Source: Blastocatellia bacterium
GTDB taxonomy: Bacteria; Acidobacteriota; Blastocatellia; UBA7656
NCBI GenBank assembly: GCA_045807765.1
Contig: JBJMGU010000220.1
Span: forward strand, 12,796-76,795
DNA length: 64,000 nucleotides
Direction: 5' to 3'
Each line of letters opens with the position of its first letter. Position 1 is the stretch's first letter. Under the pieces are notes generated by a model. The model worked only from the letters and a program-made list of their open reading frames with translations. It made no database searches and was not told the DNA's origin. Made by a program: the position numbers and the translations under genes. Shown here piece by piece: positions 1,386-60,424 of the stretch.

Positions 1386-2603
1386 ATGCCATTTGCAACT
1401 GTCGCAGAAGCTATCGAAGAATTTCGCGCCGGGCACATGATCATTATCGTGGATGATGAAGACCGCGAGAATGAAGGTGATCTGGCGTGTGCCGCCGAAA
1501 AAGTCACCCCTGAGATCATCAATTTCATGGCGCGCTTTGGACGCGGCCTGATCTGTTTGCCGCTCACCGAAGATCGGCTGGATGCATTGCAAATCCCCTT
1601 GCAGGTCTCGGAAGCCGAAAACACCGCCTCGCGCGGCACCGCCTTCTGTGTCTCGATTGAAGCGCGGCGCGGCGTGACCACAGGCATTAGCGCCGCTGAC
1701 CGCGCGACGACGATTCAGGTCGCGGTTGATCCGCGCACGCGCCCGGCGGATCTGGCGCGGCCCGGCCACATCTTTCCGCTGCGCGCCCGCAAAGGCGGCG
1801 TGCTGGTGCGGCCCGGTCAGACCGAGGCGTCGGTTGATCTGGCGCGCATCGCCGGGTTGATGCCGGCGGCGGTCATCTGCGAAGTCATGAACGACGACGG
1901 CACGATGGCGCGGCTGCCGCAGTTGCGCGAGTTCGCCATCCAGCATGGCATCAAGATCATTTCGGTCGCCGATCTGGTCAGTTATCGCATGGCCCACGAG
2001 CTGTTGATCCATTGCGCCGGCGAAGCGCGTGTGCCGACCGTTTACGGCGAGTTTCGCGCAGTGGCTTATACCAACGACATCAATAATGATGTGCATCTGG
2101 CGCTGGTGATGGGCGACATCACGCCGGACGAAGACTTGCTGGTGCGGGTTCATTCGCAGTGTGTGCTTGGCGATGTCTTCGGCTCGCTCAGGGACGACAC
2201 CGGCTGGCAACTGCATCGCGCGCTTGAAATCATCGCCAGTGAAGGGCGCGGCGTGTTGTTATATCTCAAGCAAGAAGGGCGCGGCGTCGGACTGGTCAAT
2301 CAACTGCGCGCTTATCGCTTGATGGACGAGCAGAACAAGGACGCCGTCGAAGCCGAAGCGGCCATCGTCGGATTGCACAAGATGGACCCGCGCGATTACG
2401 GCATCGGCGCGCAGATTCTCCATGATCTCGGCGTCCGCAAGATGCGACTGATCACCAACCATCCAGTGAAGCGCGCGGCGCTCGAAGGCTTTGATCTGGA
2501 GATCACCGACCGCGTGCCCATCGAGATGGAGCCAAACGAGTCGAACGAAAAAGTGCTGCGCGCTCGGCGCGAAAAACTCGGCCATTTGCTGACGAAGGTG
2601 TAG
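1386..2603 (+). CDS. ribBA: bifunctional 3,4-dihydroxy-2-butanone-4-phosphate synthase / GTP cyclohydrolase II
   Basis: The N-terminal DHBP synthase motif [12 protein letters not shown] and the C-terminal GTP cyclohydrolase II region ([12 protein letters not shown]..., [14 protein letters not shown]) are present. Start chosen at ATG 1386 after AGAGGA; the track ORF begins at TTG 1362. Confidence 0.85.
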
Positions 2604-2695
2604 GAGTCAGGAGTCAGGAGTCAGGAGTCAGAATAGAAAGTAGAAGCGCGAAGCGCTGATTTCCTTATTCATTCTGACTTCTGACTTCTGACTCC
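2603..2695. repeat. intercistronic tandem-repeat hairpin (unit GGAGTCA x4 / TCTGACT x3)
   Basis: Left arm ggagtcaggagtcaggagtcaggagtcagaat, right arm attctgacttctgacttctgactcc, separated by a 36-nt AT-rich loop holding a mini-palindrome agcgc-gaa-gcgct. Left G opposes right T at two unit positions, i.e. G-U wobble in plus-strand RNA. The element begins with the ribBA TAG stop and ends 13 nt before the tamB ATG. Confidence 0.7.
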
Positions 2696-2707
2696 TTGTT
2701 CATCATT

Positions 2708-5700
2708 ATGCGGAGAAAGTTACTCATCGCCGCGCTCGCCTTACTCGGGGTCATACTTCTTTTATTCATTGCCGTCGTCTTCTACATTCGCAGCGGGCGG
2801 CTCGATCTCTACCTGCAATCACAGGTGATTGATGCGTTGAGCGACTTCGGCATACGCGCCGAAATCGGCAGCACCCACCTCGACCTTCGCGGCTACAAAG
2901 TGACGCTCGACGACGTGAAGCTCTATGCCGGCGATGCCCGCGAGCCGTTTGGCAAGCTCAAGCAGATGACCGCCGACTTCTCGGTGATCTCTTACCTGCG
3001 CCGCGAGATCAACATCACGCACGTCACCGTCAATCAGCCGGAAGTCTGGATGAGCGTGGACGCGCAGGGACGCTCTAACCTCGACAAGCTGCATGCGCCG
3101 CCCAGCAGCGAGGAAGAAAAGAAGAGTAGCGTCACCTTTCTGACCGCGTTGTTTGAAGTCAACAATGCGGCCTTCCACTACGACGACTTGCAGCGCAACA
3201 TTCACGCCGTCTTGCCCTTTGATCCCAGCAAAGACATGGCGGGGCTGACTTTGAAGCTGACGCCGCGCGAGCCGCGCGCCCTCGTGGACAAGATCAATCA
3301 CGACCTCGCGCTCAACTTTGACAAAGCGCAGATTATCCGCGACGGTCAGACGATCAACAACATTCAAGCCTCTGCCAGCGCCGTCGTTCACTACGATGAG
3401 AAGAACCGCGCCGAGCAGCGCATCGATGATCTGAGTTTCAAGTTCGGCTCCGATGTCGGCAGCATCAATGTCAGCGGCAACGTCGAAAGCTTCGCGCCGC
3501 TCAAGTACAACCTGCCGCAAGTCGAAGCGTCGGCGGCGCTTGAGCAGATCGCTAAAGTGTTCACGCCTGAAACGCGAATGAAAGGCGCGGTCGGCTTCAA
3601 AGGCGCGGCCAGCGGCGTGGATGCCGAGTACACGGCGAAAGGCTTGCTAACCTCGGACGCGCTGACCGCCGGCAACGTCACGGTCGCCGGCCTTCAGGTC
3701 AACGCCAACCTCAGCGGTAAAGGCGCGGATTATCACGCGACCGGCGAAGTCACATCATCGGCGCTCACCGCCGAAGGCTTTCGCGTCAGCGGCCTGCGCA
3801 TCAAGACTAACGTCGAAGGCAGCGGCGACGAGTACAACGCGACAGGGGCGCTTTCGACCGGGCAGGCAGCGGGCCGCGGTGTCGAAATCAGCTCGGTGCG
3901 CGTCGACGACGCTCGTGTCAAAGGCGAGGGCGACCGTTTTAATGTGAGTGCCGCGCTCAACGTGCCGGCGCTCAAGAGCGAGCGCATCAGCGTCAGCGGC
4001 CTCAGCGGGCGGCTGACGGCAGACCGCAGCAAAGTCAGTCTCGAATCGTTCGCTGCCGCGACGCTCGGCGGCACGGTCGCCGGCAGCGCGACCATCGCTT
4101 ATGGCGGCGGCGCATCGTCGGTTGACGTGCAATTCCGCTCACTCGATTTAGATCAAGCGGCGACGGCGGCGGCGGCTCGACAGGTGCAGGTGCGCGGCAC
4201 CGCAAACGGCACGGCGCGGTTGCAGTTCCCCGGCCTGGATTATCAAGCGGCGACCGGGCGCATCGATGCGACTTTTGACGCGGCGGTGTCGCCGGCAGAA
4301 TCATCCACTGAACCGCTGCCGGCCAAAGGCGAGATTGCGCTGGTCGCCAACGGGCGCGGCTTCAACGTCGAGCGCGCCTTCGTGCATTCGGCCAACAGCG
4401 ACCTGACCGTCACCGGCAGCATCGGCTGGAAAGGCGACGCCGATTTTGATGTGAAGTTCGACTCGGCGGATATGGCCGAAGTGCAGCGCGCCGTCGAAGC
4501 CTTTGGCCTCGTCACCGACGAGATGAAGCAGGATTACCCGGTCGCTTTGAACGGGCCGGGCCAGTTCACGGGTCGCGTGTCCGGCTCGCTCGACCATCCC
4601 GAAGTCAGCGGTCATCTCAAGCTCGATTCGATTCAATCCGCCGGCGACACAGTAAGCGACGTGCCGCCGCAAGAGGTCGGCTCGTTCGAAGGTGACATCG
4701 CTTACAGTCCCGCGCTGCTGCGCATAGACAATGCCGCGCTGGTCAGGCCGGACGGCTCGCGCGCCGACTTTTCGTTGACGGCGCGGCTCGACACGCAAGC
4801 GGCCAAAGATAAGAATGGCATCGCCGTCAAAGCCAACGTGCAGAGCTTTGACCTGCCAAGCCTGGTGCGCATGGCGCAGCCGGGGCTGGCCAACCTGATC
4901 GGGCGCGGCACGATCACCGGGACGATTGACCTGAAAGGATTGCCCGGCCCGCGCAGCATCGAAGGCACAGCCAACCTGTCACTCAGCGCCGGCGAATTCA
5001 ACCTACCTTCGACCGAAGAAGGGCAAGATGTAGCCAAAGTCACGGTTCCTGAATTTACTGGCAACATCACTTTCGCCAACAGCGAGCTTGCCGTTCAGAA
5101 CCTGCGCATGCGCATCGGCAACCAGTCAGAGATTCAAGGCGAGGGACGCTTCAACCTCGACACCTACGCTTATTCGCTCAACGCCACGGGCAAGAATATC
5201 GATCTCAGCGATCTCTCGCAAAAGCTTTCTGAGAGCGTGCGGATGACCGGCACCGCCGATGTCACAGTCACCGGTCAAGGCAAGTGGGGCAACACCGAAG
5301 ACTGGTCAGAGCTGAACCTCAACGCGCTGGTTCAAGGCCAGAACGTTACGTTCAACGGGCGCGACCTCGGCAATGCCAGGGTCACGGCAATCACCGAGAA
5401 TGGCTTGTTGAAAGTCGAAGCCACGGCCAACGTCCTCGATAAGCCGCGCACCCTCGCGGCGACCATCGATCTGCGTGACCGCGAAGCGTACCCGGTCAGC
5501 GCCAACATCGAATTCACCGACACAGATATTGGGCCTTACCTCGGACTGGTCGCGCCGGAGTTGAGCGGCATTTCAGGAACCGCTACCGGCACGATCAAAC
5601 TCAGCGGCCCGTTGCGTGATCCCGACAAGATTCAAGCCGTCGCCAACCTGACCAAGCTCGAATTCGGCGGCGCGATCACCGAGCGCCAGCGCTACACGAT

Positions 5701-59701: not shown

Positions 59702-59850
59702 ATGCGTTCGATGCCACCTCAATCGTAAATCTGCAATATAGCATACCGGCTGGCGAGCGACTACCGGCAACTGGCGAGCGGCGCGAGGGTATGCTAGACT
59801 CCCTGAACTTACATGCAGCCTGCGCCATCACAAACATCAGGAGAAAGGGA

Positions 59851-60330
59851 GTGACGCGACGCGCAATCTACCCGGGCACGTTCGACCCAATGACTCAGGG
59901 CCACCTCGACATCATCGAGCGCTCGGCAAAGCTGTTTGATGAAGTGATCGTCGCCGTGCTGGTCAACCTCGACAAGCAGCCGATGTTCACCGTCGAAGAG
60001 CGCGTCGAGATGATCCGCCAGGTGGCGCGCTGGCCTAATGTGCGCGTCGGCACCTTCGCCGGATTGCTGGTAGATTACGCCATCGAGCAACAGGCGCAGG
60101 TGATCGTGCGCGGCATCCGTGCCATCTCTGATTACGAGTACGAGTTGCAGATGGCGCTGATGAACCGGCGGCTCCAGCCGGGCGTCGAAACCGTTTTCCT
60201 GATGGCCGCAGAGGCTTATTCTTATCTCAGCTCCCGGCTCATCAAAGAAGTCTTTAAGCTGGGAGGCTCGATCAACGGGCTGGTTCCCGAATGGGTCGAG
60301 CAGCGCATGCGAGAGAAAGTAAAGGGGTGA
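59851..60330 (+). CDS. coaD: pantetheine-phosphate adenylyltransferase
   Basis: (V)[21 protein letters not shown] gives the T/HxGH nucleotidyltransferase motif, plus ISDYEYE. A GTG start at 59851 gives the canonical length; the track ORF starts at 59791. Confidence 0.85.
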
Positions 60331-60424
60331 AGGAAACAGGAAGCAGGAGGCAGGAAGCAGGAAGCAGGGCAGAAGATTGTGGCTGCCTGTCTCCTGCCTC
60401 CTGCCGCCTGCCGCCTGCCTCCTC
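60331..60424. repeat. intercistronic tandem-repeat hairpin (unit GCAGGAA/GCAGGAG vs CTGCCTC/CTGCCGC)
   Basis: Left arm aggaaacaggaagcaggaggcaggaagcaggaagcagggcag; right arm ctgcctgtctcctgcctcctgccgcctgccgcctgcctcct; 10-nt loop. It starts 1 nt after the coaD stop and ends 8 nt before ATG 60433. Confidence 0.7.

Follow-up and report, generated by a model that had tools for sequence, protein, structure and literature searches.

Tandem-repeat hairpins at gene junctions of a Blastocatellia genome as probable palindromic repeats of the STRR and REP kind

The present study concerns seven long hairpins, whose arms are built of short tandem repeats, in a 64-kb stretch of DNA (the window) from a metagenome-assembled genome (MAG) of a Blastocatellia bacterium (contig JBJMGU010000220.1). 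These loci are probably copies of at least five families of interspersed palindromic repeats of about 90 to 130 bp. They would be the acidobacterial counterpart of the short tandemly repeated repetitive sequences (STRRs) of cyanobacteria, and of repetitive extragenic palindromic sequences (REPs), REP doublets forming hairpins (REPINs) and Rickettsia palindromic elements (RPEs). In other words, they appear to be STRR- or REP-like palindromes in a new phylum, a known kind of repeat and not a new class of intercistronic switch. The original prediction regarded them as generated or selected structures rather than mobile ones. That contrast is not borne out, as families of these hairpins sit at non-orthologous junctions and close relatives have empty sites. 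From the source genome, the data comprise the 64-kb window; numbers from L001 to L143 denote loci fetched from other genomes.

The seven loci were recovered in three ways, by reading of the sequence, by Tandem Repeats Finder (TRF) and by an inverted-repeat finder. A strict detector pairs two TRF arrays if they have the same period, lie no more than 150 nt apart and have consensus units related by reverse complementation and rotation. In the 64 kb it returned exactly these seven elements and no others, in agreement with the loci first described. The two-arm pattern had no match in 100 shuffles of the window. RNA folds of the seven elements range from -48 to -72 kcal/mol, with z values of -3.4 to -10.1 against dinucleotide shuffles; the minimum free energy (MFE) is -53.6 (z -8.4) for element 1 and -71.5 (z -10.1) for element 6. 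It is confirmed that the seven hairpins are real, far beyond chance. The units had been given as 7 to 8 nt long, and this holds for elements 1, 5 and 7 (7 nt) and for elements 2, 3 and 6 (8 nt), but not for element 4, the only one with a 10-nt unit. Three of the copies within the window are of the GACGCGGM type. The elements start 0 to 45 nt 3′ of the upstream stop codon, as had been noted, and at 2603 the AG of the ribBA stop codon TAG (2601-2603) is itself part of the first unit of element 1.

Four of the units had been considered private to their loci. As judged by sequence, however, none of them is private and the unit types are families: ATGAATG, CACAGATGAA, GGAGTCA, GACGCGGM and GGCAAAA recur at other junctions in related genomes, and the first three of these, supposedly private, are found in other Blastocatellia. 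Element 5, of the ATGAATG type, shares 84% column identity, its 40-nt loop included, with elements in the Blastocatellia loci L110 and L135. Both of these lie at non-orthologous sites, in the opposite orientation to element 5. We considered whether the L110 copy could be the orthologue of the one at 27470 and rejected this, since tblastn with the window open reading frame (ORF) calls (a set without the 30328-31482 gene) found no fetched pattern locus syntenic with any window junction. The CACAGATGAA arms of element 4 are about 97% identical to those of an element in L134 at a different junction, the one that holds element 5 in the window (junction B). The GGAGTCA family of element 1 occurs in L136 and L138 at the deacetylase junction (junction C, the site of element 6). 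Several copies of one family also share a genome. The MNJR01 genome has four AAAACTG elements with conserved loop and flanks, L135 has two ATGAATG copies 8 kb apart, and the window itself has three GACGCGGM copies.

The orthologous junctions tell a similar story. We fetched 15 bamA loci (62-85% identity) and ten loci around the carbamoyltransferase and aminotransferase genes (78-96% identity), and synteny was kept across them. Relatives at 86-96% protein identity are polymorphic, in that a junction may be empty, hold another family or hold a nested element (see the table). After the ABC permease gene of L136 there is no hairpin (z -0.9), and at junction D of L143 there is no spacer at all, the cytidylyltransferase and aminotransferase genes overlapping at ATGA. 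In L134, the 'empty' junction A (1352-1366) reads AAGGAAATGATGAATCG, which equals the left edge and first unit of the ATGAATG element of L135 (1487-1530). This could be a deletion footprint or an insertion-site microhomology.

Furthermore, one element can replace another from within. The closest bamA relative, L116 (85% identical), carries a pure (GGCAAAA)n hairpin at the tamB/bamA junction. Compared with L116, window junctions 2 and 3 retain one to three outer (GGCAAAA)n units flanking the (GACGCGGM)n arms, and the interior, including the loop, has been replaced. At junction B, L134 has a CACAGATGAA element inside ATGAATG remnants. Further nesting was detected automatically in L001, L024 and L079 and by eye in L063 and L115; automated detection yielded three cases only because remnants are shorter than two units, and the rest were read by eye. 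Orthologous subtilases carry different units (GACGCGG-type versus GGGTGCAG-type) at the same N-terminal site (L064:6302-6380 and L115:6517-6660), so slots are reused inside genes as well. In L122/L123 (5770-6030), the loop of the tamB/bamA hairpin is occupied by another REP-like palindrome, AATCCCACCCACGGCAGTGGGTGGAT, in several copies.

The elements also change in place. Between the window and L141, element 7 differs by five arm substitutions, of which none is compensatory, and the MFE moves from -60 to -47 kcal/mol. Unit number varies in close relatives, with 13 versus 4 copies in L129 and L130. The AACTGTG arms at L065:3785-4150, with 10 versus 38 copies, show an extreme asymmetric expansion.

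A scan of one genome per species with the GACGCGGM two-arm pattern, G-first by design, returned at least 115 loci from many phyla. Among the matches listed are several classes of Acidobacteriota, Planctomycetota, Chloroflexota, Gemmatimonadota and Verrucomicrobiota, besides Gallionellaceae, Leptospiraceae, a Waddliaceae MAG (Chlamydiae) and cultured Sphingomonadales and Rhizomicrobium. The detector found 166 elements in the listed scan loci, about 45 of them with other units, mostly heptamers; across all loci, period 7 occurs in 52 of the 79 non-seed elements. We could place 115 scan-locus elements between two genes: among the matches listed, 78 lie at co-directional, 29 at convergent and 8 at divergent junctions, against base rates of 478, 155 and 143 (chi-square p 0.005; divergent depletion p 0.0004). 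Only divergent junctions are depleted of elements. The claim that copies occur only between co-directional genes therefore stands for the window and fails elsewhere. All seven window elements lie between same-strand genes, which is marginal (p ~0.04) given about 32 co-directional, 9 convergent and 9 divergent junctions by crude gene calls. The median distance between the upstream stop codon and a scan element is about 12 nt; in the convergent spacers of L051 and L107, about 10 nt separate the hairpin from either stop codon. The earlier comparison with REPs and bacterial interspersed mosaic elements (BIMEs) proves apt, for the junction context is shared. The GGAGACGC two-arm pattern occurs on only 3 of 2.9 million IMG/VR viral contigs (L131, L132 and L133), so that transfer between phyla by phages finds no support here.

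Two of the scan loci show larger rearrangements. In L112, two inverted copies of about 130 bp (1594-1682 and 3779-3866), each a GGAGACGC hairpin with shared flanks, bracket 2.1 kb. We rejected a transposon here, as the enclosed gene codes for a 7-bladed lactonase and not a transposase; the bracketed segment could be invertible or duplicated. L080 (7030-7900) has four to five tandem copies of a unit of about 192 bp that contains a GGAGACGC-type hairpin.

How might such elements spread and persist? We propose that the elements are copied and spread as DNA by a process that depends on the hairpin. One candidate is an enzyme like the HUH-type REP-associated tyrosine transposases (RAYTs) acting on single-stranded hairpins. 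Another is that extruded hairpins undergo break repair or template switching, which would account for the inside-out replacement. In such replacement, the hairpin may break at its tip and then be repaired from a template, or a new element may insert into hairpin centres. Slippage would alter the unit number, and quasi-palindrome correction, for which template-switch mutagenesis is the established basis, would keep the arms matched. The elements would either favour existing hairpin slots close behind stop codons or survive there, with fast turnover. Presumably they survive where harm is small, namely after stops, in the N-terminal regions of signal peptides and in surface loops of proteins. Transcribed copies are predicted to fold into very stable stem-loops, which would act as barriers to 3′-exonucleases and as RNase III substrates and so alter the expression of neighbouring genes. 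On the analogy of REPs and of the heptamer hairpin that RNase III cleaves in Haemophilus influenzae (PMC12721329), they probably affect mRNA ends, and RNase III cleavage and mRNA-end protection are plausible consequences of transcription. Such effects would be by-products, at most a secondary co-option, and not the reason for the existence of the elements; slot persistence and arm polarity leave room for co-option.

Several points weigh against mobile repeats. Target-site duplications were absent from the filled/empty pairs L135/L139 and window/L137, whose boundaries are fuzzy. No transposase was found in the fetched loci, and phmmer with an approximate IS200 TnpA query had 0 matches in 5,603 ORFs from 1.25 Mb of loci not chosen for such genes. 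'Mobile' is therefore a statement about distribution, not mechanism. Junction C is occupied in five of six genomes, more persistently than simple neutral insertion predicts, and occupancy of ribBA/tamB (6/7 relatives) and tamB/bamA (10/11) likewise exceeds that prediction. Copies per family in the source genome are countable within 64 kb only. The gene calls in the scan loci are crude, heuristic ORF calls, and it is the GGAGACGC-type family of other phyla, ascertained by a G-first pattern, that supplies most of the statistics on context. Finally, G outnumbers C in the 5′ arm of 50 of the 55 unit families that have no relation to the scan pattern (p 2e-10).

This last polarity deserves attention. 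The 5′ arm is purine-rich in 47 and pyrimidine-rich in 8 of the 55 families, and all seven window elements obey the G-first rule. Since the elements are palindromes, the rule holds on both strands, and such strand symmetry suggests a filter acting on transcripts or on the substrate of an enzyme. Possibly, transcripts running in either direction are thereby spared an unpaired C-rich segment on which Rho could load. It is also conceivable that the arms, stop codons being purine-rich, offer stops to ORFs that run in from either flank, or that an enzyme acting on the single-stranded hairpin requires this polarity. Shine-Dalgarno or anti-Shine-Dalgarno mimicry by the arms was rejected, as core 4-mers occur in 11 of the 55 families versus 9.3 expected from unit shuffles. 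For the GGAGACGC family itself, the by-catch polarity is one versus one, the reversed arrangement being CCGCGTCKCCGCGT N40-70 ACGCGGMGACGCGG. A bolder and rather doubtful proposition is that hairpin-targeted copying operates in many soil phyla, overwriting resident hairpins from the inside out, maybe without a dedicated transposase, and that the polarity is the imprint of a transcript-level filter. Such copying might take the form of cleavage of extruded hairpins and templated repair from another hairpin locus. The candidate filters would be the avoidance of free C-rich Rho-loading RNA and the supply of stops and terminator-like U runs in both directions.

An explanation that shares much of this evidence is that the hairpins are selected RNA elements (intercistronic stabilisers, RNase III sites or coupling devices), in which the hairpin is kept and the unit sequence is free to drift. 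It would account for slots that keep a hairpin with differing units (ribBA/tamB, tamB/bamA and junction C, in relatives of 62-90% identity), for starts 0 to 20 nt after stop codons, for depletion at divergent, promoter-only junctions, for the G-first polarity of 50 of 55 families, and for the start codon in the loop at bamA and the SurA-like gene. It has precedents in the hupS-hupL STRR hairpins, proposed to stabilise or couple (PMC2670836), and in the RNase III-cleaved hairpin of hmw1A (PMC12721329). Nevertheless, we consider it unlikely. Four of the seven junctions have no element in relatives of 86-96% identity, one family occupies unrelated junctions in both orientations, elements are common at convergent junctions and present inside ORFs, and the overlapping genes of L143 need no hairpin. 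The substitutions seen against L141 (a 95% relative) are non-compensatory and weaken the stem. Moreover, the sense strand has no advantage from G-U pairing. Among 78 co-directional elements, the sense fold is better in 41 and the antisense fold in 37 (Wilcoxon p 0.87); in the window, the fold favours sense in four, antisense in two, with one tie. Folding of both strands gave no sense preference, and there is no sign of a selected sense-strand RNA fold. Rfam 15 gave no match at gathering thresholds, and at E<=1 only eukaryotic miRNA-precursor models appeared, far below threshold, in keeping with a generic long-hairpin shape.

Promoters directly downstream at two window loci also speak against selected RNA elements, and against an operon-internal role as a general rule. 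The promoter-like sequence following element 5 lies outside the repeat and is kept in five relatives (among L134-L139), whether the hairpin is present or not. Element 6 adjoins a TATAAT that stands 7 nt before the minus-strand ATG of the histone-deacetylase-family gene (31263-31285). This box is conserved in L134, L135 and L136, and the gene is apparently leaderless.

Could the hairpins have originated where they stand? Slippage would expand a 7- or 8-mer, fold-back or template switching would invert a copy, and the arms would then co-evolve with nothing moving. The variation in unit number (13 versus 4 in L129/L130; 10 versus 38 in L065) is of the kind expected. So are units at one slot that differ by single bases (GGCAAAA, GCAAAGG, GGAAAAA), and so is the native start region of junction A in L134, ATGATGAAT, which resembles the ATGAATG unit of L135. 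Heptamer slippage is favoured in bacteria according to Mrazek 2007, as cited in PMC4679880, and neither target duplication nor transposase was found. In contrast, arm variants together with a 40-nt loop are shared between non-orthologous sites of different genomes, and several copies in one genome (MNJR01) have the same loop and flanks. In the window lineage, moreover, GGCAAAA gave way to the identical GACGCGGM unit at two junctions independently. In-place origin as the whole explanation is therefore improbable.

Least probable by a further step is that the hairpins are factor-independent terminators of an unusual type, without a U-tract and possibly bidirectional. Their position directly after stops and in convergent spacers (L051, L107), the promoters following two window elements, and the U runs after GC segments in the 3′ arm of A-rich unit families would fit. 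However, the T content of the 10 nt after the stem is equal on both strands (3.24 sense versus 3.28 antisense), which agrees with the earlier statement that the elements have no terminator-type T-tract. A consensus terminator scan of 19000-38500 made no call on the elements but called 21387-21413, a canonical terminator-like site with a 12-bp GC-rich stem followed by TTATTTTTAT, after a gene ending at 21339. T-tract terminators thus coexist with the tandem-repeat hairpins in the window. In addition, three of the elements lie within the syntenic ribBA-tamB-bamA-surA string, with starts in or just after the hairpin, and in-frame copies occur in essential-type genes, where termination would be lethal.

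Other known classes were rejected: a miniature inverted-repeat transposable element (MITE) by definition, as target-site duplications were not found; integron attC sites, as no RYYYAAC/GTTRRRY cores were seen at element ends and the flanks are syntenic housekeeping genes; and CRISPR, by anatomy and the same syntenic context.

Palindromic repeats of the STRR and REP kind thus remain the closest comparison. In cyanobacteria, STRR heptamer arrays form hairpins, for instance at hupS-hupL in Nostoc/Anabaena (PMC2670836), and paired TTTTGAA/TTCAAAA heptamer arrays lie near start codons in Nostoc PCC 7120 (bioRxiv 10.1101/2022.06.06.494920). As in our elements, STRRs are intergenic tandem 7-nt units, inverted so that a hairpin can form between genes, and many different units coexist in one genome. 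The roles proposed for them (transcript stability, translational coupling and termination; PMC2670836) are those suggested by the original prediction. Unlike STRRs, the present elements reside in Blastocatellia, not cyanobacteria, include 8- to 10-nt units and have other unit sequences. Slot reuse, nested replacement, insertion polymorphism and arm polarity were not found described for STRRs in the literature covered, which excludes Elhai 2008.

REPs lie within about 20 bp of the end of the upstream ORF, between unidirectional or convergent ORFs and rarely at divergent ones (PMC3733652). Some are in frame in genes, including dnaE2, and mRNA stabilisation or termination has been proposed (PMC3733652, PMC3116915). 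Our elements resemble REPs, BIMEs and REPINs as intergenic palindromes, probably high in copy number, near ORF 3′ ends with the same junction bias; inverted REP doublets also form long hairpins, and both have in-frame gene copies. A REP unit, however, is a single imperfect palindrome of 20-40 bp with a GTAG/CGTC tag and a tail (PMC3733652), whereas here the arms are tandem 7- to 10-mer arrays without a common tag. A further difference is that many sequence-unrelated families coexist; a weak search of the fetched loci found no RAYT association.

RPEs, as summarised in PMC3733652, are likewise palindromes tolerated in frame in coding genes, but they are non-tandem, 100-150 bp long and restricted to Rickettsia; in the window, by contrast, the elements touch N-terminal coding regions only. 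The TAACTGA repeats of Beggiatoaceae, Cyanobacteria and Bacteroidetes are also short units across distant phyla, intergenic and near starts, with horizontal spread suspected and no mechanism known (PMC4679880). Unlike ours, they comprise 169 direct sets and one indirect repeat and so form no hairpins (PMC4679880). In the 5′-untranslated region of Haemophilus influenzae hmw1A, an (ATCTTTC)n hairpin is cleaved by RNase III and controls expression (PMC12721329). There too, one arm of the long RNA hairpin, shown by experiment to be an RNase III substrate, is a heptamer array, but the locus is single and phase-variable, its other arm is non-repeat and G-rich, and there is no dispersed family. The present elements therefore fail the sequence definitions of REPs and MITEs and lie outside the STRR host range. 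The original prediction knew of nothing comparable in Acidobacteria, and our literature search, which included octamer arrays as text and whose coverage was incomplete, found no earlier description either.

Some copies overlap coding sequence. At 7193 and 10214, the downstream ORFs read through the element. The loop of element 2 holds an in-frame ATG (7228), and arm 2 reads as the N-terminal region preceding the signal-peptide core. The loop of element 3 carries GAGGGAG and then ATG 10254, with SPISASPRRRVAAS encoded by arm 2. These loop ATGs are probably the start codons, with arm 2 coding. In relatives, too, the bamA ATG lies in the loop and the pyrimidine-rich arm 2 supplies the hydrophobic part of the signal peptide, e.g., MFAQPINRIADPGTVSIRSLRFALCSLLFAFCLVPSALA|SDVG in L120; the SurA-like gene has the same arrangement of loop ATG and arm 2 as signal peptide. 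Arm expansion lengthens the signal-peptide region of bamA in L129 and L117. In L117 (1305-1665), about 200 nt of (CTTTGCY)n lie in the bamA 5′ region and would give LRPLLFA repeats if translated.

In none of the six frames does the GACGCGGM/GGAGACGC-type unit contain a stop codon, as T is absent from one of its strands and A from the other. In-frame hairpins of this type occur at the same HHH_6-region site of DnaE-like Pol III alpha genes in L003 and L025 (see the table), each an insertion of about 35 residues, e.g., GDAETRRR...SASPRLRVSAS. Another in-frame copy lies in a STAND kinase linker in L021. Several other seemingly intragenic copies, e.g., in L037, were dismissed as 5′ ORF extensions.

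Three further repeats in the window lie apart from the seven elements. A palindrome without tandem units (51206-51257; 25-nt arms, 84% complementary, 2-nt loop) stands at the junction or overlap of the same-strand ORFs 49583-51184 and 51159-53060. A 21-nt unit, GGCCAACGCGCAGTTGATCCT, is repeated 3.7 times at 45616-45692 in the minus-strand ORF 45437-45811, which is low in GC at third codon positions. GCGCG arrays in the DNA ligase gene (23568-23691) are ordinary Arg/Gly-rich coding sequence and were rejected as an element.

Table 1. Elements and associated features of the window, with the state of orthologous junctions in relatives, and in-frame hairpins of two other loci (L003, L025). Flanking genes were named by Pfam; arrays are those of TRF.
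Feature	Position	5′ array	3′ array	Sequence	Flanking genes or context	Orthologous junction
Element 1	2602..2696	2602-2631, AGGAGTC x4.3	2672-2693, x3.1	(GGAGTCA)n / (TGACTYC)n hairpin	ribBA (stop 2601-2603), then tamB-like (ATG 2708)	ribBA/tamB: window GGAGTCA; hairpin in 6/7 relatives (GATTTTG, GTGAATC, GGGGACAC or GTGATTC); half an arm in L128
Element 2	7192..7311	7192-7228, 8-mer	7274-7307, 8-mer	(GACGCGGM)n hairpin	tamB-like (stop 7145-7147), then bamA	tamB/bamA: window GACGCGGC; hairpin in 10/11 relatives (GGCAAAA, GCAAAGG, GGAAAAA, GGGCGACG or GAGACGCG)
Left remnant outside element 2	7186..7195			GTAAAAGGCG, probable older (GGCAAAA)n arm	alignment with L116	
Right remnant outside element 2	about 7313-7339			probable older (GGCAAAA)n hairpin	alignment with L116	
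Element 3	10216..10341	10217-10239, 8-mer	10306-10341, 8-mer	(GACGCGGM)n hairpin	bamA (stop 10198-10200), then SurA-like gene	bamA/SurA-like: window GACGCGGM; among relatives, hairpin only in L116 (closest), unit AAAAGGC
Left remnant beside element 3	10202..10214			GAGAAGGCGAAAG, older (AAAAGGC)n arm	L116 has (AAAAGGC)x5 here	
Right remnant beside element 3	10342..10365			CTTTTGATCCTTGCCTTTTGCCTT, older (GCCTTTT)n arm	now codes signal-peptide hydrophobic core	
Element 4	19601..19712	19612-19646, 10-mer	19672-19712, 10-mer	(CACAGATGAA)n hairpin	zinc-ribbon protein gene (stop 19595-19597), then GFO/IDH/MocA oxidoreductase (ATG 19723)	A (19598): window CACAGATGAA; empty in L134, L139; ATGAATG in L135
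Element 5	27474..27581	27475-27506, 7-mer	27556-27578, 7-mer	(ATGAATG)n hairpin	ABC permease gene (stop 27467-27469), then carbamoyltransferase (ATG 27643)	B (27470): window ATGAATG; empty in L137 (96%), L139; ATGAATG with other loop in L135
Promoter-like sequence	27582..27611 (+)			TTGAAA-N18-TATCGT	directly 3′ of element 5, upstream of carbamoyltransferase	
Element 6	31292..31395	31295-31322, 8-mer	31360-31390, 8-mer	(GACGCGGC)n hairpin	minus-strand ABC ATPase (stop 31397-31399), then histone-deacetylase family (ATG 31263)	C (31295): window GACGCGGC; AAAGGCA (L134), AGAAGTC (L136, L138), GGCGACGC (L139); none detected in L135
Element 7	60331..60424	60331-60368, 7-mer	60386-60423, 7-mer	(GCAGGAA)n hairpin	cytidylyltransferase (stop 60328-60330), then aminotransferase (ATG 60433)	D (60331): window GCAGGAA; same element in L141 (95%); small unrelated hairpin in L142
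In-frame hairpin	L003:1588-1692			GGAGACGC-type	Novosphingobium MAG, DnaE-like gene	
In-frame hairpin	L025:4816-4918			GGAGACGC-type	Planctomycetia MAG, DnaE-like gene	

At about one per 10 kb, such elements would be a major feature that goes unannotated in the genomes of Blastocatellia and other soil bacteria. They shift start-codon calls, as in the bamA and SurA-like ORFs that read through them, add peptide segments to signal peptides and enzymes, and place very stable stems at mRNA ends. The parts most worth following are slot replacement, the cross-phylum GGAGACGC family and the G-first polarity, whose strand symmetry constrains any mechanism. Slot reuse and nested replacement together offer a tractable system for how small palindromic repeats move and persist, a question still open for REP, CGTC-REP and STRR sequences.

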